DNA of 37,104 nucleotides from Candidatus Omnitrophota bacterium (GCA_043822245.1 JBDRBY010000030.1:1-37104); one strand, 5' to 3'; numbered from the stretch's first letter, positions 2,405 through 29,372 are shown. Numbers and translations are program-made. Notes: generated by a model from the sequence alone, not told the origin.

Positions 2405-2434
2405 TGTAGAGACACAAGATTTTGTGTCTCTACA
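2405..2434. repeat. Variant palindromic hairpin TGTAGAGACACAA-GATT-TTGTGTCTCTACA, a GCG->ACA relative of the dispersed REP-like element
   Basis: 13-bp perfect arms. It shares the GTAGAGAC...GTCTCTAC termini with the main element. Confidence 0.7.
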
Positions 2435-2454
2435 TTTGCGTGGTTCATCTTTTA

Positions 2455-2650
2455 TTGAGACGCGATAAATCGCGTCTCTACTGGGTTGCATTTTTCCTTA
2501 CCGGCGAATCGTATCTGTGTAGAGACGCGATTTATCGCGTCTTTACGAGGTTGCATTTTTCGATACCAGCGAATCGTATTTGCATTGAGACGCGATAAAT
2601 CGCGTCTCTACGGGGTTGCATTTTTCCTTACCGGCGAATCGCGTCTTTAC
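2455..2650. repeat. REP/BIME-like cluster: three full palindromes plus one half-copy, in alternating orientation
   Basis: The copies are at 2455-2481 (AAAT loop), 2519-2546 (TTTA loop) and 2585-2611 (AAAT loop), with a half-copy at 2634-2650. Each copy is followed by a conserved ~38-bp spacer GGGTTGCATTTTTCCTTACCGGCGAATCGTATCTG. The core is GAGACGCGAT-NN-ATCGCGTCTC, with 10-13 bp arms. Confidence 0.9.
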
Positions 2651-3033
2651 GGGGTGACTAGCGCTTTTTTGATTTTTTCTAATAGTTTTTGCGGGGTGAA
2701 GGGTTTTACTACGTAATCCGCGGCGCCGAGTTCCGCGGCGCGGGATACGTCGTTATTTCGCGTTTTAGAAGTGAACATAATAACCGGGATATGTTTGGTC
2801 TTTTCGTTATCTTTTAGCCTCGCGAGCGTTGTAAGGCCGTCTGTTCCGGGCATCATAATGTCTAATAAGATTATATCGGGTTTCTCTGATATTGCCTTAT
2901 TCAACCCTTCTTCAGAGTTAAGCGCCGCGCAGGTTTTATATCCGCTCGCTTCAAGCCTAAAAACTGCCAAATCAATCAGATCCTGCTCGTCATCAATTAG
3001 TAAAATGTTTTTTTTGAGCGATAATACGGCCAT
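2647..3033 (-). CDS. Single-domain response regulator (CheY-like receiver)
   Basis: 128 aa. It has NILLIDDEQD, a phospho-acceptor Asp context ILLDIMMPGTDG, and a conserved Lys in VVKPF. Confidence 0.9.
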   Translation of the reverse strand: MAVLSLKKNILLIDDEQDLIDLAVFRLEASGYKTCAALNSEEGLNKAISEKPDIILLDIMMPGTDGLTTLARLKDNEKTKHIPVIMFTSKTRNNDVSRAAELGAADYVVKPFTPQKLLEKIKKALVTP

Positions 3034-3048
3034 TTTTATTTTTCTCCC

Positions 3049-3220
3049 GTAGAGACGCGATTTATCGCGTCTCTGTCTTTTCGGGTTTCATTTTTCATTG
3101 AGACGCGATGAATCGCGTCTCTACATTTTTGCGTTTCGTCCTTCATTGAGACGCGATGAATCGCGTCTCTACATTTTTGCGTTTCGTCCTTCATTGAGAC
3201 GCGATGAATCGCGTCTCTAC
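3049..3220. repeat. REP-like cluster: one copy at 3049-3075 and three direct 48-bp-period copies with a GA loop at 3098-3124, 3146-3172 and 3194-3220
   Basis: The unit TTGAGACGCGATGAATCGCGTCTCTAC plus ATTTTTGCGTTTCGTCCTTCA is repeated exactly three times. The last copy overlaps the stop codon of the 3217-4353 CDS. Confidence 0.9.
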
Positions 3221-4353
3221 GATAAAATTTCAGGGAGGCGCTTTAGCGCGTCGGGGATCGGGATGATGGAAATTTTGCCGTCCCGCGCCTCGCGGCTGCC
3301 TCCGTACATAAAATATGTTTTTGACATCGGGTAATCCTGTTGAAAGGATTTTAACCCTTTCAACATAGCCCCTGAAACCCTGGCTGTCCGCTTGATCTCA
3401 AAAGCCCGTATTCCCCTGTCTCCATACAACACAAAATCCACTTCCGCGTTGCCGGCCGTCCTCCAGTAGTGTATCTTGTATCCCAAGCCATAACCGGTAT
3501 TCACCGCGTTGAGTTCCTGGAAAAGAAGAGTTTCAAGGCTAATCCCTTCAATTTCTTCAGGCATATCCAAAGGGCCGGCAGGCCTTAAAGTACGGTAAAC
3601 TCCCGTGTCGAAATAATAGAATTTAGGATGTCCCGCCATGCGCCTCTTCGCCTTTTTGGTAAAAACAGGCACCCTATAAGCTATGAGCAGGTCTTCTAGT
3701 ATTGAAAAATAGTTCTCCACAACCTTGCGCTCAACGGAACACTCTCTGGCAACCGAAGAAATGTTAAGGGCCGCTCCTTGTGAAAAACTTGCCGCTTCAA
3801 GAAATCGGGCAAACCCTGCCAGATTTCTGGTTAGTCCCTCCTGCTGTATCTCTTCTTCCAGATAGGTCTTTACATAACTCTCAAGATACGCCTTGGGGTC
3901 ATTTTCTATGTGGACACTGGGCAATTGCCCGTATTTAAGCGAACGCGTTAAACTAAAATCTTTACCCAATTCCGGCACGGTAAGCGGGTGCATATAACAG
4001 GTAAGAGCGCGGCCGGCCAGTAAATTTTGTCCTTTTCTCTTTATCTTCCTCGCGTTTGAACCCGTCAGAATAAATTTGTATTTGTATTTTTCTATCAGGC
4101 GGTGAACCTCATTCAACAATTCAGGAACTCTTTGCACTTCATCTATGATAATCCAATCCCTGAAATTTTCAGGGATTAAGTTTTCTACACGCTGGGGATC
4201 AGCCAAAAGACTATTGAAAAGTCCTGCCTCCAGTAAGTCTATGTATACGGCTTTTGGAAAAGCGGATTTTACCCACGTAGTTTTTCCTGTCCCGCGCGGG
4301 CCAAATAAGAAGAAACTTTTGCCTTCAGGCGTTTTAATCAATCTGGAATACAT
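3217..4353 (-). CDS. AAA_14 / DUF4143-family ATPase of unknown function
   Basis: 378 aa. It has the Walker A motif LFGPRGTGKTT, a Walker B motif WIIIDEVQ, and a C-terminal region typical of DUF4143 proteins. REP clusters flank it on both sides. Confidence 0.85.
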   Translation of the reverse strand: MYSRLIKTPEGKSFFLFGPRGTGKTTWVKSAFPKAVYIDLLEAGLFNSLLADPQRVENLIPENFRDWIIIDEVQRVPELLNEVHRLIEKYKYKFILTGSNARKIKRKGQNLLAGRALTCYMHPLTVPELGKDFSLTRSLKYGQLPSVHIENDPKAYLESYVKTYLEEEIQQEGLTRNLAGFARFLEAASFSQGAALNISSVARECSVERKVVENYFSILEDLLIAYRVPVFTKKAKRRMAGHPKFYYFDTGVYRTLRPAGPLDMPEEIEGISLETLLFQELNAVNTGYGLGYKIHYWRTAGNAEVDFVLYGDRGIRAFEIKRTARVSGAMLKGLKSFQQDYPMSKTYFMYGGSREARDGKISIIPIPDALKRLPEILS

Positions 4354-4399: not shown

Positions 4400-4475
4400 G
4401 TAGAGACGCGATTTATCGCGTCTCTGTCTTTTCGGGTTTCATTTTTCATTGAAACGCGATAAATCGCGTCTCTAC
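4400..4475. repeat. REP-like pair at 4400-4426 and 4449-4475, in opposite orientation
   Basis: GTAGAGACGCGATTTATCGCGTCTCTG and TTGAAACGCGATAAATCGCGTCTCTAC. Confidence 0.9.
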
Positions 4476-5894: not shown

Positions 5895-5907
5895 TTTTTT
5901 CTTTCCA

Positions 5908-5934
5908 TTGAGACGCGATAAATCGCGTCTCTAC
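5908..5934. repeat. REP-like palindrome (single copy) abutting the permease stop
   Basis: TTGAGACGCGATAAATCGCGTCTCTAC. Confidence 0.9.
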
Positions 5935-7764
5935 CTACCTTTGGCGCTTGCCTAGTAGGATGATATCTCTTAGGGCTTCCTTATCTTTGGCTCGCATCCA
6001 TCTTTCCTTAAAATCCAAGTCCTGGGCGATTTGAGCGATCGCGGATAAAGCTCCGAGATGGAAAATACGTTCATCTTTGGTACCGGCGATCACAAAAACT
6101 ATGTGAACTTTATCCGTTTTCGCGGGGAATACAATTCCCCCTTTGCAACGCGCCAAAAGTATCACGAACAGATTCGCCCCTTCGACTATTACATGCGGAA
6201 TAGCCAAAGAGGGGCTCAAAACGGTACTACTTTGTTCTTCCCTATCCAGGAGAAGTTTGAATATCTCCGCGGGATTTACTCCGAGTTTCGGGGCTATGCT
6301 ATCTGCCGCCAGTTTGAAAAAATCTCCAACGGCAAGAGAACCTTCTATGTCTAAAATTACGCTGTCCTCTATTACACCGTCAAATCGGTCTTTTATAATA
6401 TCGTCTCTCTCTCTAATTATCTGTTTCAATTCCTCTTCTAATGAAACATCCACAAACTCTTTTGCCGTAACCCGCTCAATAAGATGAAGAAGCGCGAAGT
6501 CTTTCCCCGCCTTCCGCCTGCCATAAAACCAGAATACCGCTAACCCGCACGCGAAAAGAAGCGATCCAAAAAATAGCGCTTCTTTACCCATGTTAACTGC
6601 TAAAAGCCAGCATCCGAAAATCCCGATAATTTGCGTCCATGGATATAGCGGAGAGTAAAACTTTGGCTGATAATTTTGCACACGGCTTTCTCTCATAATA
6701 ATCACACATACGCACGAGAATATGAAAGTAAGGATAAGAACCGTTGACGCGACCTCAACAAGCACATATAGATCCAGAAATAAAGCGGCTATCATAAAAA
6801 TTCCTGTAGCAAAAATCGCCACAACAGGTGTTTTAAAACGCCGGCTGATTTTACCGAAAACTTTCGGTAGGAGAAAATCGCGGCTTAAAGCCAGCGGATA
6901 CCTGGAAGCCGCCATAATGCCGGCATTCGCGGTTGAAACAAACGCGAGCACAGCCGCTATACCCAAAATAAGTTTACCGGCTTCTCCCATAAAAACATAC
7001 GCGGCGTCAGAAATCGGAGTAAGTGAATTGTCAAGTTGCCCCGCGCCAAGTACTCCGGTTGTTACAAAAACAACTAACGCGTAAAAAACAACAACAACAA
7101 GAAAAGAAAGTATCATGCCTAAAGGTACCGTCTTTCCAGGGTTCTTTACTTCTTCAGCAATGCTGGCAACCTTAAGAAGCCCTCCGTATGAAACAAAGAC
7201 AAACCCTGCTGTGGAAAAAACCGCGGGAATTCCAAAAGGGATAAAAGGTTTGAAATTCTGATAATCTACGGCAGGAATGCCTTTTATAACGTACACCGCG
7301 AGAAGCAGTAACAGAAAAACTACCAGGCCGATTTGAACTCTGCCCGCGGATTTGATGCCGATGACGTTAATGACTACGAAAAACAAACAAAAGCCTATCG
7401 TGATTAGATGAGTATCATATCCCCCAATCAACCGCGTAAACGCGGCCATGCCTATGAGGGCAAACGAACTTTTAAGCGACACCGCTAACCACGTAAGAAG
7501 CCCGTCAATTGTGCCAAAAACCGGGCCCATACTACGCATAACATAAAACACGTCACCTCCGGCCTTCGGCATGGCGGAAACAAGTTCAGCCTGGCTCAAC
7601 ATGCCTGTCATAGCTAAAAGCCCTGCCAATATATAAGAAACAACTACCGCCGGACCTGCCTGCGCGTGCGCGAGTCCTGGCAGGATAAAAAGCCCGGAAC
7701 TAATCATCGCTCCGGTCGCGACGCAAAATACGTCTAGTAGGGTTAGTTCTCTTTTGAGTTTCAT
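5935..7764 (-). CDS. APC-family amino-acid permease fused to a C-terminal PTS EIIA type-2 (PtsN-like) domain
   Basis: 609 aa. The N-terminal ~430 aa is polytopic and typical of APC transporters. The C-terminal ~150 aa carries the EIIA-2 signature (LAIPHVIVEG...VHIVFVIAG). Confidence 0.82.
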   Translation of the reverse strand: MKLKRELTLLDVFCVATGAMISSGLFILPGLAHAQAGPAVVVSYILAGLLAMTGMLSQAELVSAMPKAGGDVFYVMRSMGPVFGTIDGLLTWLAVSLKSSFALIGMAAFTRLIGGYDTHLITIGFCLFFVVINVIGIKSAGRVQIGLVVFLLLLLAVYVIKGIPAVDYQNFKPFIPFGIPAVFSTAGFVFVSYGGLLKVASIAEEVKNPGKTVPLGMILSFLVVVVFYALVVFVTTGVLGAGQLDNSLTPISDAAYVFMGEAGKLILGIAAVLAFVSTANAGIMAASRYPLALSRDFLLPKVFGKISRRFKTPVVAIFATGIFMIAALFLDLYVLVEVASTVLILTFIFSCVCVIIMRESRVQNYQPKFYSPLYPWTQIIGIFGCWLLAVNMGKEALFFGSLLFACGLAVFWFYGRRKAGKDFALLHLIERVTAKEFVDVSLEEELKQIIRERDDIIKDRFDGVIEDSVILDIEGSLAVGDFFKLAADSIAPKLGVNPAEIFKLLLDREEQSSTVLSPSLAIPHVIVEGANLFVILLARCKGGIVFPAKTDKVHIVFVIAGTKDERIFHLGALSAIAQIAQDLDFKERWMRAKDKEALRDIILLGKRQR

Positions 7765-7771
7765 GTTTTAC

Positions 7772-7960
7772 TAAGACGCGATAAATAGCTTCTCTACCTT
7801 TTTCACGGGTCGTTTTACTAAGACGCGATTTATAGCGTCTCTACGGGTCAGCTCCATGTTTTCAGGGGTAGGGACGAGGCAATACTTCGTCCCTTCGGGT
7901 TGCATTTTTCAATACCTGCGAATCGTATCTGCGTAGAGACGCGATTTATCGCGTCTCTAC
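7772..7960. repeat. REP-like cluster: two degenerate copies (7772-7797, 7819-7844) and one intact copy with its conserved 38-bp spacer (7933-7960)
   Basis: The copies are TAAGACGCGATAAATAGCTTCTCTAC, TAAGACGCGATTTATAGCGTCTCTAC, and GGGTTGCATTTTTCAATACCTGCGAATCGTATCTGCGTAGAGACGCGATTTATCGCGTCTCTAC. Confidence 0.85.
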
Positions 7961-9399: not shown

Positions 9400-9810
9400 T
9401 TAAAATCTGGCTATCACATAATCCACAAAACCCATCCCCACATAGATTAAATTATACAGATGATGCATGATAATCGCAATCATAGTCGAACCTGAAAATA
9501 TTACCGCAATGTTCCCTATAATTTTAGCTTCCACAAACACTGAATCAAACGGTATCCGCGCGAAGAGAGGATTTGTCCAACTGATCAGATTCAATATTAT
9601 CGTGTGTATGTGTATTGTGAGGTAATAAAACAGTTTTGGTTCTTTGGTAAGAATAAAAAAATGCGGCCATAAGAATTTCAGGACATTCGAGCCTAGATGG
9701 AAAGGATCATTAAACAAAAAAACACCGATAATCCCCGTCAAGACCAAAACATCCAAGATGGCCAAGCGTACATCACTTGATGTTTCCTTGGAACAATAGG
9801 CAAGCTCCAT
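9400..9810 (-). CDS. Hypothetical small integral membrane protein (~4 TM)
   Basis: Hydrophobic ORF. The track ORF 9400-9996 extends through two REP copies, whose translation gives DAINRVST and DAINLVST, so the real start is probably the internal Met at ~9810 or a non-ATG codon below 9899. Confidence 0.4.
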   Translation of the reverse strand: MELAYCSKETSSDVRLAILDVLVLTGIIGVFLFNDPFHLGSNVLKFLWPHFFILTKEPKLFYYLTIHIHTIILNLISWTNPLFARIPFDSVFVEAKIIGNIAVIFSGSTMIAIIMHHLYNLIYVGMGFVDYVIARF

Positions 9811-9898
9811 ATTGATATAATACCACGTTATGATGAAAAGAGGAAATATTTCCGGAAAGTGCCCATAATATGTTACACTATCGGAGGTGGTTATGTTT

Positions 9899-9974
9899 GT
9901 GGAGACAAGATTTATCGCGTCTTTACATTTCAGAATCATATCCGGCGTAGAGACGCGATTTATCGCGTCTTTAC
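9899..9974. repeat. REP-like pair at 9899-9926 (degenerate) and 9948-9974, plus a partial copy at 10062-10070
   Basis: GTGGAGACAAGATTTATCGCGTCTTTAC and GTAGAGACGCGATTTATCGCGTCTTTAC. Confidence 0.85.
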
Positions 9975-10097
9975 GTTTCGGGCGAGGGAAGGACAATCGC
10001 GGGAAGTTATCGGCAAAGGCATGCCTTTGCCCTCCGTTGCATCGCGTTATTTTTCCATCATGTAGAGACGTACTTGCGTAATGCTGATGAAGATTTT

Positions 10098-10358
10098 TTA
10101 CATATCACCTATGTTAATAATTAAATCCGCGGTTTTTTTACGCAGGCCCGCGATGAAATGGCACTTTTTGCAATCAAAATTGTTGCTATCATATTTTGAG
10201 CAGGAAAAAAGCACATTTACCGCTTCTTGTAATTCTTTCGCGAATTTCGTTTTTTCCCGCGCTTCATCCTCTTTATTGATTTTATCTACCAGGGTATTTA
10301 TCTTTTCCTCACGTTTCACGAATATAGGACATCTAATCTTAGATTCTTCCCTATACAT
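10098..10358 (-). CDS. Hypothetical small Lys/Cys-containing protein (86 aa) at the distal end of the gvp cluster
   Basis: ORF with a C-X7-C-X2-C-H motif (CSKYDSNNFDCKKCH). The region is AT-rich. It is on the same strand as the neighbouring genes. I found no recognisable family. Confidence 0.3.
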   Translation of the reverse strand: MYREESKIRCPIFVKREEKINTLVDKINKEDEAREKTKFAKELQEAVNVLFSCSKYDSNNFDCKKCHFIAGLRKKTADLIINIGDM

Positions 10359-10378
10359 ATTCGTTTCTCCTTCTTGTT

Positions 10379-11059
10379 TTATTCAACAGGCGCGGTGAGA
10401 TATTCGGTCAATTTTTTGAATTCTTCTTTATCCCGGTTGAGACAAAGAAACAACCTTTGATACTCCCTTACTTTATTTACCCGTTTTATTTCAATTACAC
10501 GCATTCTTTTAGACAATTTAGGCAAAATGTTATGATACGCTCCCATAAACAGTATACCGGTATGTTCGTCATCTAAAGTTTCACATATCCTTTTAATTAC
10601 GTAGTCGTCCCTCTTTCTAAGTAGTCCGTTCTTTACCATTTTATAGGCGAAATAAGCTATTAATTTGCTAAGAACAGTTTTAGCGCGGCTGATTCTAACA
10701 ATACAATCCCTTTCTTTTTTGACAAGAGAAAAATCCTCTGTTTTCACTAAAACCGCTCCACGCTTAAGAAAAGAGGCGACCAACTCATAGTTTTTGCTGG
10801 CTAATTTTACTCCTTCTTCAACTATCGCTCTAGCCACTTCGCCCTCAGCTATCATTCCGTCCTGATAGATTTTCATCCCTGATACATTCATAGAATCAAA
10901 ATACCGTGCCAGACTATCCCAAAAACTTTCTACGGCTTTTAAATGTTGATCCCAAAAATCCCTGCCTAACTCAGCGATCCCTTTTTTGCTGACATCCTCA
11001 GCCAAGGAACCCATATCCGCGTTTGTGTGTATAACAGGAACATAAATAAGTGTTCTCAT
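10379..11059 (-). CDS. Hypothetical protein (226 aa), directly upstream of and co-oriented with gvpJ
   Basis: Long clean ORF. It is separated from gvpJ by 10 nt. I did not recognise a family. Confidence 0.6.
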   Translation of the reverse strand: MRTLIYVPVIHTNADMGSLAEDVSKKGIAELGRDFWDQHLKAVESFWDSLARYFDSMNVSGMKIYQDGMIAEGEVARAIVEEGVKLASKNYELVASFLKRGAVLVKTEDFSLVKKERDCIVRISRAKTVLSKLIAYFAYKMVKNGLLRKRDDYVIKRICETLDDEHTGILFMGAYHNILPKLSKRMRVIEIKRVNKVREYQRLFLCLNRDKEEFKKLTEYLTAPVE

Positions 11060-11069
11060 AAAAATTTGT

Positions 11070-11369
11070 TTATTTTATTTTGGCTTCCAAATTCTCTAAT
11101 CTTTTTTTTAATTTTTTATTCTCATTTTCAATTTCTTTATCTTTTGCCTTTGAAGATAAATAGCTATCCTGTTGCCACCAATTTATTCCCATTTCCATAG
11201 CTTTATCAACTGAAGCTATCAAAAGCCTTATCTTTATATTAAGAAGATCAATATCAGCAAGTCGAATCTTAATATCTCCGGCGATTACAATTCCTTTATC
11301 TAAAACCCGCTCTAAGATATCAGCAAGATTGGTAGCTTCAGTAGCATGCATCATTCTTTGTTGTGTCAT
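11070..11369 (-). CDS. gvpJ: GvpJ/GvpM-type gas vesicle protein (GvpA-family core plus a charged coiled-coil C-terminal extension)
   Basis: LADILERVLDKGIVIAGDIKIRLADIDLLNIKIRLLIASVDKA matches the GvpA/J/M hydrophobic core. Confidence 0.82.
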   Translation of the reverse strand: MTQQRMMHATEATNLADILERVLDKGIVIAGDIKIRLADIDLLNIKIRLLIASVDKAMEMGINWWQQDSYLSSKAKDKEIENENKKLKKRLENLEAKIK

Positions 11370-11386
11370 ATTTGCCTCTCCTTTTT

Positions 11387-11710
11387 TTACATTAAATTTC
11401 CTAAAGGGCCTAAATTTATGTTCAGGTCTTCATCTTTTACGTCAAAAATCTTTTTTAACTCATCCATCTTATCTTCCAACAACATCAATGTCTCCCCTAT
11501 TCTTTCTACTTCTCTATCGGTAAGAGATCCGCCGTCAACTCTTCTCATAGCCTGTTTTTCCAGAAGCCTTCTTATCAACTCTACAAGCGTAAGAACCAAT
11601 TTTCCTAATCCTTTTTCTACATCTTTAGGATCAAGATTGATCCTCCCGGGATTAGAATTTTCTATTTCCGACGGATCTTTAGCAATTATCGCTATGGATG
11701 ATTTACTCAT
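11387..11710 (-). CDS. gvpK: Gas vesicle protein GvpK
   Basis: GLGKLVLTLVELIRRLLEKQAMRRVDGGSLTDREVERIGETLMLLE matches the conserved GvpK core. Confidence 0.85.
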   Translation of the reverse strand: MSKSSIAIIAKDPSEIENSNPGRINLDPKDVEKGLGKLVLTLVELIRRLLEKQAMRRVDGGSLTDREVERIGETLMLLEDKMDELKKIFDVKDEDLNINLGPLGNLM

Positions 11711-11711
11711 T

Positions 11712-11930
11712 TTAAGTCGATTCCCTCATCGGGCCCTCAAGCGGAGCGCCTCTTGAATTCTCCATAGTTTCTACCGAACTAAGCATAATCCTTAATCCTA
11801 TGTATATGAGGTCCACGTCGGCAACAGAAATAACTATGTCACCGGACGCGACCATCCCCTTCTCTAAAACCCTATCTAAAATCTCTAACAGGGTTACATC
11901 TTTGGTTTTCGCGTGAATGTCCGTTGTCAT
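11712..11930 (-). CDS. Second GvpA-family small gas vesicle protein (GvpA2/S/M-like)
   Basis: LLEILDRVLEKGMVASGDIVISVADVDLIYIGLRIMLSSVET. It lies 1 nt from gvpK. Confidence 0.8.
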   Translation of the reverse strand: MTTDIHAKTKDVTLLEILDRVLEKGMVASGDIVISVADVDLIYIGLRIMLSSVETMENSRGAPLEGPMREST

Positions 11931-11937
11931 CTCAGGT

Positions 11938-12771: not shown

Positions 12772-12789
12772 CTGTTAAGGCTTATTCAG

Positions 12790-18638: not shown

Positions 18639-18694
18639 TTTCTTCCCCCCATTTCGCCTACATTTTTAGATTTTTCGAACATGAACCGTTTTTA

Positions 18695-18721: not shown

Positions 18722-18737
18722 TGTACAAAACACAGCC

Positions 18738-19027: not shown

Positions 19028-19037
19028 TTTAACCGAA

Positions 19038-19343
19038 CTAATAGCTTAGAGAGAACGTCTTAAGAGGTTTTGTGGTTAATTTTACAGAGGGTTTAACCTT
19101 TTTCTCTTGCGATGTTTCTTCTTGAGAATTTTCAATTCGTTTAAGAATTTCATCTAGTTGTTTTTCCGCCCTATCTTTCCTCTTACTTAAGCCAAACACC
19201 TCTTTTTCCAATCTATCCTTTTCTCTTCTGAGAATGTACAGCTCCAAATAACCCGATCTTTGGATTTTTGGGATAGAACCCGTGCCTATGCTATGAATAC
19301 TCTTTATATCACTAGTCCCTGCGATTTGTAACATCCCTTTCAT
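19038..19343 (-). CDS. Hypothetical charged/coiled-coil protein (101 aa), downstream of and co-oriented with gvpN
   Basis: Clean ORF 15 nt after the gvpN stop. No recognised family. It has a GvpG-like charged helical character but a different N-terminus. Confidence 0.55.
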   Translation of the reverse strand: MKGMLQIAGTSDIKSIHSIGTGSIPKIQRSGYLELYILRREKDRLEKEVFGLSKRKDRAEKQLDEILKRIENSQEETSQEKKVKPSVKLTTKPLKTFSLSY

Positions 19344-19358
19344 CTGTCAGTCCCCCTT

Positions 19359-20330: not shown

Positions 20331-20462
20331 TCACCTCCTATTTTTCCCCATCGAGGAAATAACCCCTTTGCCGCCGCAAACCTGGCAATTCGCGAGTTTA
20401 GAAAGAAAATCAAAAGGATCTTTGCCTTTACCATGGCAAAATGCGCGCCCTATCTTTTTCAT
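20331..20462 (-). CDS. Candidate 43-aa zinc-ribbon micro-protein (MKKIGRAFCHGKGKDPFDFLSKLANCQVCGGKGVISSMGKNRR)
   Basis: I translated it by hand. It has a CxH...CxxC motif. Its TGA stop directly abuts the gvpN GTG start. It starts 24 nt downstream of the GvpC-like gene. It is too short for the ORF track. Confidence 0.45.
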   Translation of the reverse strand: MKKIGRAFCHGKGKDPFDFLSKLANCQVCGGKGVISSMGKNRR

Positions 20463-20486
20463 CCCTACCTCCCTCGGCTCTTGATT

Positions 20487-21176
20487 TTATTTCTTCTTTT
20501 TTTTGTTTTTTTTCGCGCTTTTTCTGGATTTTGTGCTTTTCTCCGGCAAACCTTCTTCAAGAACATCTCTACTTTTTCTGGATTTTGACAAAAGGAAACT
20601 CACACTCTGCCATGCCTCTTTTGCTCCAGACACATCTCTCTTGTATTCACTCATAACCTTTCGCGTACTACTCACTATACTCTTTACTTCTTTCGCGAGC
20701 TTAGACCTTAATTGTTTTTCCATTTTATCCCGATCGTCACGAAATGTTTCTAAAAGCGTTTCTACTTTCTTTTTCAGTTCCCCAGCAAACGTTTTCAATT
20801 CTTTGGAAAACTTCGCGAAACTTTCCGCCTGTTCCTTGCTCATCTCTTTACGGTTTTTTCGAAACACCTTAAGCATCGCGGCCACGTCTTCAGACAAAGC
20901 CTGGAAAAAATCATCTAACACTTTCGCCTGTTCCTTCCCCATTTTTGTTCGATTCTTGCTGAACGTCCCAATCATATCTCCCACGCTCTCTGACAAATTT
21001 TTGGCAAAATTAGCCAAATTTCGAGCCTGCTCTGAACCCATTTTTTTCCTGTCCGAAGCAAATTCCTTTAAGGTGTCATGAGTATCTGACATTATCCCCC
21101 CCAGTTCTTTTACCCGTACGTCACGCGAAGCAATAACATTTTCCGCAATTTTTTTCATTTCATCCGCCATTCCCAT
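20487..21176 (-). CDS. GvpC-like repeat protein (about four ~33-aa amphipathic repeats and a poly-Lys tail)
   Basis: The repeats are DTLKEFASDRKKMGSEQARNLANFAKNLSESVGDMIG, TFSKNRTKMGKEQAKVLDDFFQALSEDVAAMLK, VFRKNRKEMSKEQAESFAKFSKELKTFAGELKK and KVETLLETFRDDRDKMEKQLRSKLAKEVKSIVSS. The start was reassigned to the ATG at 21176, which is preceded by AAAGGAGG (MGMADEM...). It sits between gvpA and gvpN, as gvpC does in cyanobacteria. Confidence 0.72.
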   Translation of the reverse strand: MGMADEMKKIAENVIASRDVRVKELGGIMSDTHDTLKEFASDRKKMGSEQARNLANFAKNLSESVGDMIGTFSKNRTKMGKEQAKVLDDFFQALSEDVAAMLKVFRKNRKEMSKEQAESFAKFSKELKTFAGELKKKVETLLETFRDDRDKMEKQLRSKLAKEVKSIVSSTRKVMSEYKRDVSGAKEAWQSVSFLLSKSRKSRDVLEEGLPEKSTKSRKSAKKNKKKKK

Positions 21177-21284
21177 TTTTCCTCCTTTTGTAAGTTTTGG
21201 TATTGTCAAAAGTTTATACCCAAATTTTTCTTAATCCTTCGCATTTAAAACAGTTATCTAAGATTAACTTCTCTCCCCCCTTAA

Positions 21285-21440
21285 AATTCCCCCTTTGGAA
21301 AAGGGGGTTAGGGGGATTTTGTCATTTCTCTCCACAATTGACACGCATTTGATCTCAGATTCATTTCGCGGTTCAACATCTTGTATCAAATCCCCCTGGC
21401 CCCCTTTTTCAAAGGGGGGAAAGATCTGCCCTTTTTCAAA
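21285..21440. mobile_element. MITE-like element: ~35-bp terminal inverted repeats (CCCCCTTTGRAAAAGGGGGYYAGGGGGATTT) flanking a ~70-bp core
   Basis: Left arm 21290-21325, right arm 21395-21430 (reverse complement). Each arm itself contains an 8-bp-stem hairpin CCCCCTTT-NNN-AAAGGGGG. A solo arm recurs at 26445-26480. Confidence 0.5.
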
Positions 21441-21532
21441 AAATAGAAGGGAAACTACTTCATTATTTCTTTCATAATTCTTTCATTTTAATTTTGACAT
21501 TATCTAAGTTTTTACTTTTCCCATATCCAAAG

Positions 21533-22141
21533 TTACAAAGTATTTCTACTAAACTTCCTCCACTCTTTTTTTATTTTAAACTCTTCCAGCATGGATTTGA
21601 GGTCTTTTACTCTGAGCTCTCTTCCTTTGGCTAAAAGATTCTTAAGCCTCTTCGACATTACCTGCTGTTCTTCTCTAAATTGCTTTAGTTTAACGGTAAC
21701 TTCTTCTTTCCGCACGTCTTGCTGAGAAAGAATCCGTTCAATTAAAACCTGAAAGTCTTTAATTCTTTTAGTTTCTCCCTTACTAAGGTCATCTTTTACT
21801 GAAGTCAAATTACGAGCTAACATATGCGCCATTTCTTTTTGTTCCGTTATGTACCCATTCAACAAACTTTTTGCTTCTTTTTCTTTTTCCTTTTGAGCCC
21901 AAACAATCTCTTTCATCATATTGTCAAAATCTTTTTTCCGAAGAGAACTGATCTTCGCAAGGCTTTCTCTCAATTCCATAGTAACTATTTCTCTTTCTTG
22001 TCTCGCATCGAGAAAGGAATCCTGAAAACTCCAGAGAAACTGCTCTCCTGTATCAGCGGCCGCCTCTATTCTGTCCATCTTAGCGACATAAGAACTAACA
22101 ACGTTCTCAACAATACCATGTATACCCTCTCTTGAAAGCAT
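21533..22141 (-). CDS. Coiled-coil protein, a paralog of the GvpC-like repeat protein
   Basis: Its C-terminal segments KDFQVLIERIL...KQFREEQQVMSKRLKNLLAKGRELRVKDLKSMLEEFK share the F-R-x-x-R/Q-x-x-M-S-K motif and periodicity of the 20487-21176 protein. Confidence 0.6.
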   Translation of the reverse strand: MLSREGIHGIVENVVSSYVAKMDRIEAAADTGEQFLWSFQDSFLDARQEREIVTMELRESLAKISSLRKKDFDNMMKEIVWAQKEKEKEAKSLLNGYITEQKEMAHMLARNLTSVKDDLSKGETKRIKDFQVLIERILSQQDVRKEEVTVKLKQFREEQQVMSKRLKNLLAKGRELRVKDLKSMLEEFKIKKEWRKFSRNTL

Positions 22142-22271
22142 TAGCCTCTCTCTGCCTCTTCTTTAGAAAAGAATCCTTTGGCGGATTATGCTTTTTTAAG
22201 CACAAATTGCTTTACTCGTTATCATGCGCTTACAAGGATAATCCGGCAAGAATCCTCTATCGCTCCTATCC

Positions 22272-22478
22272 TTACGCGGCTGACGCTGTTAACCCAATAG
22301 CTTCCGCATACTTCAGATAAGTCTCAACTGATGCCACCACAACTCTAGCTTCGATAGCGAGTATTTCAATACCCACCAAAGAAACTCTTACCCAAGCATC
22401 AACCACAACACCCTTATCCAGGATACGGTCGACAACTTCAACCAGACTCGACGAACCGATTGCCTTTTCTACAGCCAT
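22272..22478 (-). CDS. gvpA: Major gas vesicle structural protein GvpA
   Basis: [63 protein letters not shown] is near-identical to the canonical GvpA core. The ATG at 22478 is preceded by GGGAGGAGGTGAGAAAA. The track's extra MRK comes from an upstream GTG. Confidence 0.95.
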
Positions 22479-22518
22479 TTTTCTCACCTCCTCCCATTTT
22501 AGAAATTAAAGGTCAAAA

Positions 22519-22752: not shown

Positions 22753-23090
22753 TACCATCTTGAGCCCTTCCGCTTTATCTTTTTACCTTTGCTGTCACAC
22801 CAAGATGTTACTTCGTAATGTACCCCATTAAGTTTTTGTTGTCAAGTTTTGTTTGTTTGAAAACTGTAATGCTTATTAAATCTTAACTTTGAAAAGTTTT
22901 TTATTTTTTAAAAAGGCTTACTTGCGGTAATTGTATCAATTTAAAAAAATAAATGTGCACATTTTTCAAGGTGGTGGGAAATTGTGGGCATTTAATTTTT
23001 AGATTTGGTATAAATAGCCATAAGGGGATCCTCTGACAGCATTGATTCTTGGTAATAAAAAGAGGAACTATTTCCGCGGGTTTATGTTTA

Positions 23091-23213
23091 TTGAGACGCG
23101 ATAAATCGCGTCTCTACATTTCAGAATCATATCCGGTGTAGAGACGCGATTTATCGCGTCTTTACATCTCAGAATCATATCCGGTGTAGAGACGCGATAA
23201 ATCGCGTCTTTAC
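23091..23213. repeat. REP-like triplet in alternating orientation with a 47-bp period (23091-23117, 23138-23165, 23185-23213)
   Basis: Each copy is followed by the conserved ATTTCAGAATCATATCCGGT spacer. The last copy overlaps the stop of the 23210-23854 CDS. Confidence 0.9.
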
Positions 23214-23854
23214 ATTTCAGCTCCGTCTACCGTTTTCATGTTTTCCGGTGTAGAGGAGGGTTCGCTGGGGTTTTCTTCCGGGAGAGGTTTGTCTGAGATT
23301 AGGTTGCTATTTACGAGATCGGATTCTTTGGGGTCTCCGTAGAGGCCTAACAATTGGAAGATATTTTTGTTAACAATGTAAACTTCTTTTGAGCCGGGTT
23401 TTCTTAAGAATGAACTTCCATATCCAGGGGTTTTCGTGCCCGCCAGAAATGTTTCTTTGACATTACCGTCTTTGTCTAACGCTTCTATGATAACCGCTTC
23501 TTCGTCAGAAATGCCGTAATCCGCTAGGAGTTCCGCATCACTTGAGCGCAGTTCCCCTTTCAAGCCGGCTATTTCTTTTATAAAGTTTTCTATTTTTTCC
23601 GCGTCAGCCTGTTTGTTTTCGTGAGAAGAAACTTGCCACTGGCCTTGCTCGTCTTTTTTTAATTCCAAAGAATCCTCTTTTTCTCCTGTCTTACGTACCT
23701 CTATGATGTGAACATCCGAGGGGTTAATTTGAATTTGAAGGCTTTTGTATTCCGTTTCAAAAATCTCCGGTTTAAAAAATGTTTTCTTCGCGATTGTTAC
23801 GGCCAAAAGAACGGCGAATATGATTCCTAAAATTAAGATATGTTTAAACTTCAT
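23210..23854 (-). CDS. Membrane-anchored protein with an N-terminal TM helix, possibly DUF4340-like and GldG-associated
   Basis: MKFKHILILGIIFAVLLAVTIA is a signal anchor. The gene lies downstream of the GldG-like gene in the same orientation. The start was moved to the internal Met because the upstream residues are REP-derived. The family call is weak. Confidence 0.5.
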   Translation of the reverse strand: MKFKHILILGIIFAVLLAVTIAKKTFFKPEIFETEYKSLQIQINPSDVHIIEVRKTGEKEDSLELKKDEQGQWQVSSHENKQADAEKIENFIKEIAGLKGELRSSDAELLADYGISDEEAVIIEALDKDGNVKETFLAGTKTPGYGSSFLRKPGSKEVYIVNKNIFQLLGLYGDPKESDLVNSNLISDKPLPEENPSEPSSTPENMKTVDGAEM

Positions 23855-23889
23855 GTTGCTCCTCCTGCACATGGAGACATTTCATCCGT

Positions 23890-23967
23890 GTGGAGACGCG
23901 ATAAATCGCGTCTCTACATTTTTCGCGGGTCATTTCTTCATAGAGACGCGATAAATCGCGTCTCTAC
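23890..23967. repeat. REP-like pair at 23890-23917 and 23941-23967
   Basis: TGGAGACGCGATAAATCGCGTCTCTAC and TAGAGACGCGATAAATCGCGTCTCTAC. Confidence 0.9.
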
Positions 23968-26429
23968 TGGACTTTCCATTTCGCGCGGCGGCGCATGAAG
24001 ATTCTTATTCCGCCGATAATACACAAGATTATTGGCACGAAGAAAGTTGTGAACATCCGCCATCCGGCTCTAACCGCCGAAGAAAACTTCCTTAAAGACC
24101 GGTCTACGGGCTGTTTGCTTCTTACCTCGATAAGCTTTTCACCAAGAGTAAGAGCGTCAATGGAATTTAGGAAAAAAGCCGCGTGCCCTCCATTGCCTAT
24201 AAGTTCTTTTGTAAACATTCTTGAACACCCTATGAGTATGAGTTTGCCCGGGTTGGGAGTGGTTTCGGACAAGGCATGCCTTGTCCCTACGAGTTGGTCC
24301 TCTTTTTTCGGCCAGTCAGGTATTTCTTTGTCTTTAAAGGCGTCAGGAAACTGGCCTTTAACCAATACGGCTAGAGGATACTCTTTGAGCACCGAAGATG
24401 CCGGGCTGGTTATATCTTCCCGCGTAAGCGCGCCCCCGTGATATGGGATTTCCCACGCGTACCGGCTGGAAGTAAAAAGAAGTTTTTTCTCTAAATCCAG
24501 TTTATTAAGCCTTTCAGAATCTATCGTAAGCGCGCTACCCCACAGGTATAATAAACTCGAAAGCCGGGATGTTATGGAAATGTTTTTGTTCATTTGCTCT
24601 TCAATAATTTTTAACTGCATAGGAAATTTCACGGGAGAAGAAACCGGCATAACACCGGGAAACGCTCCGCCCGTTATTGATATCATATCGCTTTGCCTAT
24701 CCATCAAAAGATCATCGCTGATGCCAAGAGCCCATTCGTTAATAAGGCTGTTTATTTGCGGCCCTTTATCTCTTGCCTTAACACTCATCCCTCTTGTTGA
24801 GGCCTCGTAGCCATATTCGTATTTCTGAACAGCCAGGAACACAGAACCGCCGTTTACTAAAAATTTGTTTATTTCAAACCTTTGGCGCTCATTGAGATTT
24901 TCGGGTTCCAGGACGATAAGAGTGGACACCAGGTATTGCCCCGTTTCCGCGTCTTTCGGAATAGGTTCTTCTTCCGTAAGCCTTACGCGAAAAGTTTTAT
25001 ACCCCTCGTATTCAAGAAGTTTCTCAACAAAGTCATACGCGTCTTCTCTGTACTGTTCCGCGGCGTTCTGGCCGAACATAGCCAAAACCTGCCGCATTTT
25101 TGGATCGATTTGGCGTTCAAAATAAGGAGCAACCACGGCCACGGACGGGCTTTTATCGAGAGAAAGCCGGTATATCTTCGCGAGAAGGCTGTATTCTAGC
25201 CCCGGTAAATCCTGTAGCGTAATAGCGGGAATAACTTCTTCCGGCTTTTCTTTGTAGGCTACGGATATTGCCGCGTAAATCAACTTTACTCCAACCTCAT
25301 CAGCTTCTATGCTCCTTACCTGAAAAGGCCTGATACCCTTTTTTTTGATAGATTCTTCCAAATCTTTTTGGTTTTCCTCAGCCACGTTAGCGGCTTCCAT
25401 ATGAAACACCTTATACCCAAATTTACCGTTTGACGCTACTTTAAATTCATCGAGCTTATCCCTTACTTCGCGCTCAAGAGTTTTCATCTCTGTGGGCATC
25501 TTATCCTGCGGAGAAATGAACAGTTTTACCGTTACGGGCGACTTAAGTTCACCCAGGATCTCGTGTGTCGCTTTGGAAATCGTGTAAATCTTGCCGCTAG
25601 TCCAGTCAAACCGGCCCACGGGCATATCGGAAAAAATAAAATTGGTAAGGCTAAAAATTCCCACGCTTATGAGGCAAGCTGTAATAAACGTGGTTTTTGA
25701 TTTTGGCCGCATTCGGCCGTCAAGCCAGAACCTGTTAAGTCCCAGAAAAATCACCGTGCCCATTACAAAATAAAGCGCGTCGCGAGTATCAATAATTCCT
25801 TTTTGAAAGGTGTCAAAGTGCTGAATCATGCCGACGGAACTTCTAAAAAAAGAACCCGCCCCGGGTATCCATCCATCTATAGACCCGGCGGTAAAATCCA
25901 TCCCTAAAAGAAAAACCGCGAAACATGCTACCATTGCCAAAATAAACGACACTATCTGATCTTTACAAAATCCTGAAATAAGGATTCCAAGCGCGAGAAA
26001 AAAACTTCCCATAAGGATACTTCCGATATACTGGCAGATAATGGAACCTATGTCAGGATTCCCCAAAACGGCAATCATTATAGGAATAGTCAGCGTGGAA
26101 AAAAGAGCGATTATGTAAAATGCCAGGCTGGCGAAAAATTTCCCAAGGACAAGCTCATGTGTTTTCACCGGGAATGTAAGCAAAAGTTCCAGCGTATTGC
26201 CTTTCCTGTCTTCTGACCACAGGCGCATTGTGACTGCCGGAAGAAAAATACACAGGATAATCGGAAGCATGTAAAAGAACCCTCTCATATCCGCTGATGA
26301 CATGAGAAAAAACTGTGTCATAAAAAGCCCTGCTGACATCAAGAGAAAGACAACGATGAAGATATACGCTATGGCTGAATTAAAATACGCCTTTATTTCT
26401 CTATTAAGTATGGTGGTAGTGTTGTTCAT
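23964..26429 (-). CDS. ABC-2 type permease fused to a GldG-like auxiliary domain (ABC_transp_aux) with a C-terminal TM anchor
   Basis: 821 aa. The first ~260 aa form 6 TM helices typical of ABC-2 permeases. The central part (KIYTISKATHEILGELKSPVTVKLFISPQD...) resembles GldG-family components. There is a hydrophobic helix near the C-terminus. Confidence 0.78.
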   Translation of the reverse strand: MNNTTTILNREIKAYFNSAIAYIFIVVFLLMSAGLFMTQFFLMSSADMRGFFYMLPIILCIFLPAVTMRLWSEDRKGNTLELLLTFPVKTHELVLGKFFASLAFYIIALFSTLTIPIMIAVLGNPDIGSIICQYIGSILMGSFFLALGILISGFCKDQIVSFILAMVACFAVFLLGMDFTAGSIDGWIPGAGSFFRSSVGMIQHFDTFQKGIIDTRDALYFVMGTVIFLGLNRFWLDGRMRPKSKTTFITACLISVGIFSLTNFIFSDMPVGRFDWTSGKIYTISKATHEILGELKSPVTVKLFISPQDKMPTEMKTLEREVRDKLDEFKVASNGKFGYKVFHMEAANVAEENQKDLEESIKKKGIRPFQVRSIEADEVGVKLIYAAISVAYKEKPEEVIPAITLQDLPGLEYSLLAKIYRLSLDKSPSVAVVAPYFERQIDPKMRQVLAMFGQNAAEQYREDAYDFVEKLLEYEGYKTFRVRLTEEEPIPKDAETGQYLVSTLIVLEPENLNERQRFEINKFLVNGGSVFLAVQKYEYGYEASTRGMSVKARDKGPQINSLINEWALGISDDLLMDRQSDMISITGGAFPGVMPVSSPVKFPMQLKIIEEQMNKNISITSRLSSLLYLWGSALTIDSERLNKLDLEKKLLFTSSRYAWEIPYHGGALTREDITSPASSVLKEYPLAVLVKGQFPDAFKDKEIPDWPKKEDQLVGTRHALSETTPNPGKLILIGCSRMFTKELIGNGGHAAFFLNSIDALTLGEKLIEVRSKQPVDRSLRKFSSAVRAGWRMFTTFFVPIILCIIGGIRIFMRRRAKWKVQ

Positions 26430-27350: not shown

Positions 27351-27407
27351 TCACTGCGCGAAGTCCCCGAAGTGGGAAAACGGGGACCTGTAATATCCAC
27401 AATCTCA

Positions 27408-27434
27408 TAGAGACGCGATAAATCGCGTCTCTAC
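27408..27434. repeat. REP-like palindrome
   Basis: TAGAGACGCGATAAATCGCGTCTCTAC. It is preceded by a small hairpin TCCCCG-N11-CGGGGA at 27364-27387. Confidence 0.9.
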
Positions 27435-27485
27435 ATTTGCGGAGTAAAAAAAGCGAAGGGGCGGGAGAAATCGGCGGATGTATTG

Positions 27486-29261
27486 TTATCTGAATTTTCT
27501 TAACACATGCATCGCTTTAAGCTCGCCTAACGCTTTTACGATCAAACTTCTATTCGCAGGGTTACCGTATTGGAGGAGAGCTCTTTGCATTTTTCGCTCG
27601 TCTAATGTTTTTGGTACATAAATTTTTTTACCGGTAAAAGGGTCAGTTTCAGTGTAATAAATACATGCCGCCAAAGTCATGGGGGAAGGGATAAAATCCT
27701 GTATCTGCTGGGGCCGGACTCTTCTTTTTGCCAGGTATAAAGCCAGTTTTAACGCTTCATTCAAAGTCGAACCCGGATGGGCGGAAATAAAATAGTTCAC
27801 AATAAAAATATTTTTCCCTAGTTTATGGGCAGTCTCCTTAAAAATCCGGACAAATTTTTCATATACGGAAAAACCCGGTTTATTCATAATCCGCAAAACA
27901 TTATCTGAACAATGTTCCGGGGCAATCTTCAATAAACCGCTCACATGATGCGCGCAAATTTCCTCAAGATACTTACTCGCGTATTTATCCACCATCAAAT
28001 CATACCGGAATCCACTGCCGATAAAAACATGTTTGACCTTGGGCACCTGCCTTAATTTCCGGTATAAATCAATACTATCTGTATATCCCAGCTTAAGGTT
28101 ATCGCATTTTTGAGGCACTAAACATTTTCTATTTAAACAAAATCCTATTTTATCCCACAATCGGCATCCTGCCGCGTATAAATTCGCGGTAGGGCCTCCT
28201 ATGTCAGTAATCGTACCCTTGAAATCCACCCTCAAAGACATTGCCCGCGCCTCATTCAGGATAGAATCTTTACTTCTGCTTTGGACAATCCTGCCCTGGT
28301 GAAAATATAAGGAGCAAAAAGAACATTCTCCGCAGCATCCTCTATGGGAGATAATAGAAAACCTCACGGTCTCAAGCCCTTTCACTCCCCCTAAAGCGTC
28401 AAAAACAGGGTGCCATTTATAAGTATAGGGTAGCTCATATATGTCGTCTAATTCTCTCGTGGTAAGAGGATACGCGGGAGGGAACTGAACAACAAACAAA
28501 TTCGAGTGCGGCTGAACGATAATTTTAGCATTGTGAGGATTCATCTGCTTGTACATCGCGGCAAACGCGATGCCGAACTTTTTCTTGTCCTTAGCCGTTT
28601 CTTCAAAAGAAGGAATTACCTCGCACTTGTCTTTGATTGAATCTATATTTTTACGCACAACAACCGTGCCTTGAATATCATCTAAAGTTTGAGCTGATTC
28701 GCCTTTGTCAAGCCGGCGCGCGATTTCCACAATCTGCTTTTCTCCCATTCCATATACCAAAATAGCCGCTCGAGAATCGCACAAAATCGAACGCCGCACA
28801 CAATCATCCCAATAATCATAATGGCCCAGCCGCCGCAAGCTGGCCTCAATCCCGCCCAGCACAATAGGCACGTCTTTGTACGCTTCTCGCGCGCGATTGG
28901 CATAATTAATTACCGCCCTATCAGGGCGCAGACCGGTTTTTTCTCCGGGGGAATACTCGTCAGTCTTACGCGGCCTCTTGTTGGCCGTGTAGTTCGCGAT
29001 CATAGAATCAACATTTCCAGAAGTAATCCCAAAAAATAACCGCGGTTTTCCCAACCTCTTAAATTCTTCCACATTTTGCCAGTCAGGCTGAGCGATAATG
29101 CCTACCTTAAACCCATTATGTTCAAGCACTCTGCCGATTACAGCCGCGCCGTAAGAAGGATGATCAACATAAGCGTCTCCGCTGATGAGGATGACGTCTA
29201 ATTCCTGCCACCCTCTATCTTTCATGTCCTGTTTTGAAATGGGTAAAAAAGTTTTTTTCAT
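27486..29261 (-). CDS. YgiQ-family (UPF0313) radical SAM protein
   Basis: The N-terminus (FLPISKQDMKDRGWQELDVILISGDAYVDHPSYGAAVIGRVLE) is characteristic of YgiQ. The Cys cluster is HRGCCGECSFCS. Confidence 0.88.
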   Translation of the reverse strand: MKKTFLPISKQDMKDRGWQELDVILISGDAYVDHPSYGAAVIGRVLEHNGFKVGIIAQPDWQNVEEFKRLGKPRLFFGITSGNVDSMIANYTANKRPRKTDEYSPGEKTGLRPDRAVINYANRAREAYKDVPIVLGGIEASLRRLGHYDYWDDCVRRSILCDSRAAILVYGMGEKQIVEIARRLDKGESAQTLDDIQGTVVVRKNIDSIKDKCEVIPSFEETAKDKKKFGIAFAAMYKQMNPHNAKIIVQPHSNLFVVQFPPAYPLTTRELDDIYELPYTYKWHPVFDALGGVKGLETVRFSIISHRGCCGECSFCSLYFHQGRIVQSRSKDSILNEARAMSLRVDFKGTITDIGGPTANLYAAGCRLWDKIGFCLNRKCLVPQKCDNLKLGYTDSIDLYRKLRQVPKVKHVFIGSGFRYDLMVDKYASKYLEEICAHHVSGLLKIAPEHCSDNVLRIMNKPGFSVYEKFVRIFKETAHKLGKNIFIVNYFISAHPGSTLNEALKLALYLAKRRVRPQQIQDFIPSPMTLAACIYYTETDPFTGKKIYVPKTLDERKMQRALLQYGNPANRSLIVKALGELKAMHVLRKFR

Positions 29262-29345
29262 GCGGCTTTAAATTGTTTAAACGGAAGATATCAGGCGGGG
29301 GAACACCGCCCCTGGGAAAAATATTACAAAAATCCAAATGTTACA

Positions 29346-29372
29346 TAGAGACGCGATGAATCGCGTCTCTAC
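29346..29372. repeat. REP-like palindrome (GA-loop variant); last copy in the window
   Basis: TAGAGACGCGATGAATCGCGTCTCTAC. It is flanked by two copies of a ~19-bp direct repeat GCGGGGGAACMCCGSCCCT at 29297-29316 and 29434-29453. Confidence 0.9.

Follow-up and report, generated by a model that had tools for sequence, protein, structure and literature searches.

The locus and its palindromic repeats

A 37,104-bp stretch of DNA from Candidatus Omnitrophota bacterium (GCA_043822245.1, JBDRBY010000030.1:1-37104), a whole contig of a metagenome-assembled genome that was analysed over its full length and is termed here the window, carries a dispersed family of short hairpin repeats that resemble repetitive extragenic palindromic (REP) elements. 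All credible genes of the window lie on the - strand and comprise a ParA-like ATPase, a response regulator, a histidine kinase, a gas-vesicle cluster at ~10.1-22.5 kb, an ABC transporter, ygiQ, recQ, a CitMHS transporter and znuABC-like genes. GC content ranges from 0.37 to 0.48 and the GC skew of the + strand is negative throughout. The half-site GTAGAGACGCGAT, searched with at most two mismatches, gave 46 matches compared with 0.70 expected from dinucleotide shuffles, the largest shuffle count being 3. Allowing four substitutions at most, the full core GAGACGCGAT-NN-ATCGCGTCTC is present in 25 copies extending from 2457 to 29369, of which 16 are exact. One compensated variant, GTAGAGACACAAGATTTTGTGTCTCTAC (2406-2433), and one half copy (2638-2650) raise the family to 27 members, in agreement with the ~27 copies described in an earlier reading of the same sequence (the original prediction). 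Neither the half-site nor the full-core scan of the window revealed main-family copies after position 29372. The 27 copies per 37 kb occupy 11 of the 21 intergenic gaps and overlap coding sequences (CDSs) only by the feet of elements at CDS ends, the local density of the main family on this one contig being ~0.7 per kb. Copies had been predicted in nearly every intergenic gap; they are found in 11 of the 17 gaps that precede 29.4 kb. A rule-based REP scan (GT[AG]G, 0-2 nt, a perfect stem of at least 7 bp and a loop of 2-8 nt) returned 28 hits, 10 on the + strand and 18 on the - strand, of which 26 correspond to the main family plus the 2406 variant and 2 to a second family described below. At gathering thresholds no Rfam family matched the window, a tRNA scan of the window found none, a literature search with the motif sequence retrieved unrelated primer matches only, and the motif GAGACG is absent from the supplementary files of PMC3733652.

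Each unit comprises a 5'-GTAG tetranucleotide (the foot), followed by a stem of 9-12 bp (AGACGCGAT / ATCGCGTCT) and a 2-nt loop. In most copies 10-12 bases are paired and only one side retains an intact GTAG, the other reading ATT or ATA. The 13-bp arms originally proposed as a general feature are perfect only at 7933-7960, which is the sole perfect 28-bp palindrome with arms of this length, while the 2406 variant has 16-bp arms. A double foot (5' GT[AG]G plus 3' C[TC]AC) is displayed by three copies of the window, 2406-2433, 7933-7960 and 23890-23917. The 2406 variant retains the 8-bp foot GTAGAGAC and is altered compensatorily on both arms. As RNA, single units have folding energies of -18.5 to -22.2 kcal/mol, with z-scores of -5.9 to -9.5; as DNA the values are -11 to -14 kcal/mol. 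The inverted doublet at 3049-3124 folds as one hairpin of the type formed by REP doublets (REPINs), with -41.7 kcal/mol as RNA and a z-score of -8.9. Direct reading of the flanks revealed no target-site duplication at single copies, as expected for IS200/IS605-like chemistry.

The copies are organised as singletons, as inverted doublets (head-to-head, HH, or tail-to-tail, TT), as head-to-tail (HT) dimers and as clusters; the head-to-tail arrays have a repeat length of 48 or 65 bp. Within clusters, 11 start-to-start spacings fall at 47-50 bp and 2 at 65 bp; since the elements are 28 bp long, the spacers measure ~20 or ~37 bp. The conserved spacer of 38-48 bp given in the original prediction is therefore not borne out. 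Three linker types were identified: a T-rich 20-bp linker, e.g. CTTTTCGGGTTTCATTTTTC, a second 20-bp linker, ATTTCAGAATCATATCCGG, and a 37-bp linker, GGGGTTGCATTTTTCCTTACCGGCGAATCGTATCTG. These modules recur at distant sites, the doublet at 3049-3124 being nearly equal to that at 4400-4475 and the pair at 9899-9974 sharing 89% identity with 23090-23165. The 37-bp linker occurs with two REP heads, that of the 65-bp array and a different, second-family one (7868-7930). The window-specific linker modules are absent from every locus fetched from other genomes. The GTAG foot, the stable hairpin, the mostly intergenic location, the occurrence as singletons, inverted doublets and tandem clusters and the reuse of linkers together support the description of the family as similar to REPs and to bacterial interspersed mosaic elements (BIMEs). 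In a hand count, the GTAG foot was confined to the - strand in 14 copies and to the + strand in 7, a difference that is not significant. All 6 singletons, second family included, have GTAG on the -, G-rich, coding strand, a pattern that fits action on the lagging-strand template; the copies are too few, however, and the effect of transcription direction cannot be separated from it.

Individual copies and their gene context

The first cluster begins with the double-footed variant GTAGAGACACAAGATTTTGTGTCTCTAC at 2406-2433, whose upper stem is altered on both arms and which folds with -22.2 kcal/mol as RNA (z -9.5). It is followed by the first unit of a 65-bp array at 2454-2481, found by the core scan with GTAG on the - strand, and by a copy at 2519-2546 that has GTAG on the + strand and GTAA as its other foot. 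The latter forms an inverted doublet with 2584-2611 (GTAG on -), both being recovered by the core and rule-based scans. The half copy at 2638-2650 (- strand, half-site scan) retains the right arm only, and its GTAA foot provides the TAA stop of CDS 2647-3033. At 3049-3076 a copy with GTAG on the + strand, identified by core scan and folding, constitutes the outer arm of the inverted doublet 3049-3124. The inner arm belongs to three head-to-tail REPs on the - strand (3097-3124, 3145-3172 and 3193-3220; core scan) that repeat with a 48-bp period over 3097-3220; comparison with the CDSs showed that the last GTAG of this array, at 3193-3220, is the TAG stop of CDS 3217-4353. The inverted doublet at 4400-4475 (4400-4427 on +, 4448-4475 on -) has the same 20-bp spacer as 3049-3124, as revealed by spacer comparison. 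A single REP on the - strand at 5907-5934 directly abuts the TAG stop of CDS 5935-7764 (CDS comparison).

Two degenerate REPs on the - strand (7770-7797 and 7817-7844, 47 bp apart; core scan) occupy 7770-7844 and are followed at 7868-7893 by a second-family REP on the + strand, GTAGGGACGAGGCAATACTTCGTCCC, which repeat comparison showed to be joined to the 37-bp linker of the 65-bp array. The perfect 28-bp double-foot palindrome GTAGAGACGCGATTTATCGCGTCTCTAC, defined by pairing and folding, lies at 7933-7960. Two REPs on the + strand, one of them degenerate (9899-9926) and the other at 9947-9974, are 48 bp apart with the spacer ATTTCAGAATCATATCCGG (core scan) and extend over 9899-9974, upstream of the likely true start of the open reading frame (ORF) 9400-9996. 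The core scan also located a single REP on the - strand at 18694-18721, at the left edge of a 33-bp tandem-repeat block, and a pair with 48-bp spacing at 18954-19029 (18954-18981, degenerate; 19002-19029, on +). The cluster at 23090-23213 comprises three REPs (23090-23117 on -, 23138-23165 on + and 23186-23213 on +) with a 48-bp period and the spacer type of 9899-9974, and the GTAA foot of its last member (23186-23213) is the TAA stop of CDS 23210-23872, as judged by CDS comparison. At 23890-23967 a copy with a GTGG/GTAG double foot (23890-23917) and a copy on the - strand (23940-23967) are 50 bp apart, and CDS comparison identified the GTAG of the latter as the TAG stop of CDS 23964-26429, also on the - strand. 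The two remaining main-family copies, both found by the core scan on the - strand, are single: 27407-27434, 52 bp downstream of the ygiQ stop, and 29345-29372, between recQ and ygiQ, which is the last of the family.

In summary, the GTAG or GTAA foot supplies the stops of four CDSs, ending at 2647, 3217, 23210 and 23964, and the copy at 5907-5934 abuts that of a fifth, at 5935. The overlaps predicted for the CDSs ending at 3217 and 23210 were therefore observed, together with two more. Insertion right at gene ends is tolerated because GTAG contains a stop codon.

The second GTAG-hairpin family has a different stem and is represented by three copies. Besides 7868-7893, it includes GTAGGGACAAGGCATGCCTTGTCC at 24267-24290 (- strand, rule-based scan), which lies in frame, as VGTRHALS, in CDS 23964-26429 encoding an 821-residue ABC-transporter auxiliary protein, and GTAGGGACAGGCCTAAGGCCTGTCC at 31312-31336 (- strand), which lies between recQ and the CitMHS transporter gene and folds with -18.3 kcal/mol as RNA. 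The proposed lack of elements in the final 7.7 kb thus holds for the main family and fails for REPs overall, owing to the copy at 31312-31336. The main family fills 11 of 17 gaps before 29.4 kb and none of 4 after it (Fisher p = 0.035). However, the part after 29.4 kb holds only 569 bp of intergenic DNA, and when sites are weighted by intergenic length the probability of finding none there is 0.23, so that the suggested confinement to the first 29.4 kb is within chance. In addition, the REP-free stretch internal to the array of copies (8.75 kb, 9950-18697, the gas-vesicle operon) is longer than the terminal one (7.76 kb). GC content is 0.41-0.48 across 29.4 kb, with no shift that would mark the position as a compositional boundary. 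The elements avoid tight operons, and no regional boundary is supported at 29.4 kb.

The gas-vesicle cluster (10098-22487) is complete, comprising gvpA (22272-22487, longest ORF), a gvpN-like gene (19359-20330), small gvpG/J/K-like ORFs, four gvpF/L paralogues, one of which is a DnaJ-domain fusion, a CDC48-like double AAA ATPase and an Hsp20/GvpH-like protein. It is REP-free from 10.1 to 18.7 kb and contains one REP cluster (18694-19029). Between two of its genes, and bracketed by two REPs, lies a 33-bp tandem repeat of 6-7 units (GTAAAAAACGCAATCCGCGAAACACCGCGCACC) at 18723-18958, each unit of which has, on the - strand, a small hairpin and a tail rich in T; the repeat yields the spurious ORFs 18666-18950 and 18681-18968. 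Other repeats of the window include a 276-bp unit present about three times at the contig start (1-828; 66-77% identity), which is probably a repetitive coding region running off the contig end, and a perfect (TTGC)15 microsatellite at 2037-2098 inside a doubtful + strand ORF (2019-2327).

The core and its transposase genes in other genomes

An exact-pattern scan of one genome per species revealed at least 117 stretches carrying the exact core. The matches listed include hosts from Cyanobacteria (Nostoc, Calothrix, Fischerella), Bacteroidota, Chlorobiota and Cloacimonadota, from the candidate-phyla-radiation groups Moranbacteria, Peribacteria, Gracilibacteria and Parcubacteria, and from Methylococcales, Deferribacteres and Spirochaetia. 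The palindrome alone is common to these stretches, the flanks being unrelated. In 8 of the 117 listed loci an ORF similar to REP-associated tyrosine transposases (RAYTs; IS200-like Y1 enzymes) was identified, and in 5 the palindrome lies in frame inside it, where it is read as RDAxxRVST or ETRxIAS. A metagenome scan selected for REP doublets provided 120 loci, of which 18 contain a RAYT-like ORF with a REP inside, within 500 bp, or both. In all 26 loci with a RAYT-like ORF a REP is located in frame inside the gene or at most 2.4 kb away, and in 24 of them it is either internal or no more than 500 bp distant; 21 of the 26 ORFs contain the REP in frame, and it lies within 500 bp of 17. A classic REPtron is seen at one locus (L214), whose RAYT-like gene is preceded by 2 REPs and followed by 6. 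The link to REP-associated tyrosine transposases put forward originally is consequently found in other genomes, with REPs inside and around RAYT-like genes, and no such gene is found in the window itself.

The RAYT-like ORFs display the motifs MPNHxH, WQ/WH and YIxxNP. The sole NCBIfam match of the ORFs tested was NF047646 (REP-associated tyrosine transposase), below its equivalog cut-off, and Pfam Y1_Tnp was reached by 3 of the 6 ORFs tested. Near-duplicates apart, RAYTs carrying the REP share 33-64% identity in conserved columns, while the 20 specified bases of the core are identical. The feet GTA|TAC accompany 73 of 128 exact cores in the genome loci. The predominant form in the genome sample is the double-footed singleton with a TA or GC loop, and in the doublet-rich contigs and the window it is the single-footed copy with an AA/TT or GA/TC loop. 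Near-identical Flavobacterium RAYTs (P0241-P0250) differ only in the number (2-4) of 14-residue ETRFIASNNSNTTD units, a variation that reflects the in-frame copy number of a 42-bp REP-plus-spacer unit inside the transposase gene and supports array-length dynamics. The exact core also occurs on 33 IMG/VR viral contigs (L241-L273), with at most 3 copies on each and a RAYT-like ORF on none.

Among Omnitrophota, the relative GCA_043822625.1 (YgiQ 69% identical) lacks the main family and encodes a RAYT similar to subclass 2.4 of TnpA_REP transposases, with its own REP, GTAGGGACAGGC..., present in frame within the gene (GQAQGPVPT) and again immediately upstream of it. This means that Omnitrophota hosts a RAYT/REP system. 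The second family of the window resembles the REP of this relative. A closer relative (L274, YgiQ 87% identical) can show no empty sites because its contig ends 46 and 59 bp from the gene, and the 77% relative (L275) is REP-free with a different gene order. In the related Omnitrophota metagenome-assembled genome that encodes this RAYT (L120, 11968-13837), an EcoRV-like endonuclease and a D12-class methyltransferase adjoin ygiQ, and a CopG-like gene adjoins the RAYT.

Identity, proposed mobility and comparison with known systems

The hairpin, the foot, the organisation of the copies and the association with RAYT genes in other genomes, all directly observed, suggest that the window repeats are GTAG-tagged REPs of the type tied to the TnpA_REP/RAYT subclass 2.4 (Bertels group 4) tyrosine HUH transposases, the double-foot form included. 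From the sequences compared, this assignment has a probability of about 0.8. The phenomenon itself has already been described, and what is new is Omnitrophota as a host of subclass-2.4-type GTAG REPs. Several observations weigh against the assignment. The 37.1-kb window contains no RAYT-like ORF, and in a profile search with the cognate RAYT sub-lineage none of the best 120 database matches is named Omnitrophota, the names being those of Flavobacterium, Methylobacter, Chitinophagales and Ignavibacteriota. The main family is absent from three Omnitrophota relatives (L118, L120, L275), two of them examined as 20-kb loci, an absence that would fit a lineage-specific expansion. Finally, the basal stem bases AGAC include 2 G/C of 4. 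The RNAMotif rule of PMC6006769 asks that three or more of the first four basal stem bases be G/C, or that the stem reach a GC content of at least 50%; the copies miss the 3-of-4 rule for short REPs, yet their stem AGACGCGAT has 5 G/C of 9 (56%) and remains above 50%.

According to the mechanism proposed by analogy with related systems, the hairpin and GTAG foot, exposed as single-stranded DNA (ssDNA), e.g. on the lagging-strand template, would be bound and cut by a cognate RAYT encoded elsewhere. The family to which the repeats are assigned points to such action in trans, since no RAYT is present in the window. Without duplicating the target, the enzyme would copy or move units, single or as doublets, into intergenic DNA, and arrays would then grow or shrink by slippage or recombination. 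Insertions at gene ends would be tolerated, and the transcribed hairpins may protect mRNA 3' ends. Active spreading of the family is plausible because 16 of 25 cores are exact and near-identical doublets occupy distant sites.

These same two observations argue against the copies being inherited relics of a RAYT that once spread them and has since been lost from the lineage, the copies persisting passively or at the level of the host. The window without a RAYT, the degenerate copies at 7770-7844, 9899-9926 and 18954-18981, the half copy at 2638 and the loss of REPtrons from some strains, reported in PMC3733652, are consistent with relics. Against them stand the exact cores and the composite doublets that are nearly identical (3049-3124 and 4400-4475) or 89% identical (9899-9974 and 23090-23165), and little weight attaches to the lack of a RAYT in 37 kb, as such genes are usually single-copy; this explanation is considered improbable. 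A somewhat better case, though still a doubtful one, can be made for a function above all in RNA, the host having selected the hairpins as terminators or as stabilisers of 3' ends, with mobility secondary. The RNA hairpins are very stable, copies lie between transcription units, several of them exactly at stop codons, with none in the tight operons of the gvp and znu genes, and E. coli REPs are established to stabilise upstream mRNA (cited in PMC6006769). Yet the T-rich tail of the hairpin is restricted to the + strand; the terminator-like matches are thus antisense to all window genes, and on the sense (-) strand of the window the hairpin has no U-tract behind it. Canonical intrinsic terminators for sense transcripts were accordingly rejected, as was, in the sense direction, the terminator role that the original prediction had suggested. 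In addition, selection for a host-specific RNA function does not explain why an identical 28-mer is found within coding sequences and, across phyla, in unrelated surroundings.

The breadth of hosts bears equally on the notion that the palindrome is a double-stranded operator recognised by a dimeric regulator over many operons. A near-perfect inverted repeat in intergenic DNA, located in some cases just upstream of starts (e.g. 3049-3076, 15 nt before the ATG at 3033), would suit an operator, but a single gap can hold up to four copies in tandem, copies cover stop codons and lie downstream of genes, the GTAG foot is common to compensatory stem variants, and the palindrome is found in frame in transposase genes and next to unrelated genes in many phyla. 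The operator reading, very unlikely on this evidence, was rejected on account of the tandem copies, the stop-codon overlap, the constant foot with compensatory stems and the in-frame transposase copies. Palindromic 28-bp repeats with a regular 48-bp period also recall CRISPR arrays or an ordinary minisatellite. The spacers, however, measure ~20 or 37 bp and are repeated between arrays rather than unique, arrays have at most 4 units, many copies are singletons, and Pfam scans of 30 window ORFs revealed no Cas domains. An explanation of this kind is hardly conceivable, and the CRISPR reading was rejected owing to the short reused spacers, the lack of Cas domains and the small arrays.

Returning to REPs mobilised by a subclass-2.4-type RAYT, a core identical across at least 10 phyla, RAYTs that are only 33-64% identical and a REP that usually lies in frame within the gene raise the tentative idea that RAYT and REP might travel together as a self-contained module moving horizontally, in which the DNA partner is far more tightly constrained than the protein, the Omnitrophota genome representing a burst. 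REPs are usually viewed as species-specific, and such a module would run against that view. This reading is possible but less likely than not. If true, ~0.7 copies per kb over a few-Mb genome would correspond to more than 1000 copies, far above the ~14 of group 4. More immediately, the repeats account for dense palindromes, spurious ORFs (18666-18950 and the 5' end of 9400-9996) and borrowed stop codons, and they may fragment assemblies of this lineage. They also exemplify high local density in a RAYT group that had been reported to be low-copy, and the exact core across many phyla, combined with diverged transposases, makes a handy natural data set on hairpin recognition by Y1 HUH enzymes.

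The window repeats share with the subterminal hairpins of IS200/IS605 elements (IS608, ISDra2) a hairpin with an adjacent guide tetranucleotide, which in IS200/IS605 is recognised as ssDNA by a Y1 HUH enzyme, as well as the lack of target duplication. In contrast, REPs are dispersed non-autonomous units with no transposase between two ends, and the enzyme is typically single-copy. Similar to E. coli BIMEs and Pseudomonas REPINs, the window contains inverted REP pairs with short reused linkers, foldable into one long hairpin, and the build is mosaic, as illustrated by the 37-bp linker joined to two REP heads. The sequences are nevertheless unrelated, the RAYTs of E. coli and Pseudomonas belong to subclasses 2.2 and 2.5, and head-to-tail arrays, common in the window, are rare in most published families. 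The likeness to the GTAG-tagged REP superfamily, as described by Di Nocera et al. 2013 (PMC3733652), is closer and extends to the terminal GTAG, a 6-13 bp stem with a 2-3 nt loop, singletons, HH, TT and HT dimers, clusters with reiterated flanking DNA, feet whose TAG serves as a stop codon and occasional in-frame genic copies. Consensus sequences of 24 such families are published there.

The closest resemblance is to the REPs of TnpA_REP subclass 2.4 (RAYT group 4), described by Quentin et al. 2018 (PMC6006769) and Bertels et al. 2017 (PMC5581495). That subclass is characterised by the motifs NH[IFV]H / WQ / YIxNNP, is found in Cyanobacteria, Bacteroidetes and scattered phyla, and has long and double-foot REPs (5' GT[AG]G ... 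C[TC]AC 3') and frame-keeping REP insertions in tnpA_REP (PMC6006769). Likewise, the window family displays a 5' GT[AG]G, in some copies a 3' C[TC]AC, and a long perfect hairpin, and in other genomes its core is located around and in frame within RAYT genes with NHxH / WQ / YIxNNP. Major differences involve the host, Omnitrophota, which goes without mention in the accessible parts of both papers, and the organisation, most window copies being single-footed and arranged in doublets or arrays. They also involve abundance, since group 4 is reported in PMC5581495 to have few REPs, with ~14 occurrences of the flanking 16-mer per replicon, compared with which the ~0.7 copies per kb of this single contig, taken without extrapolation, count as high.

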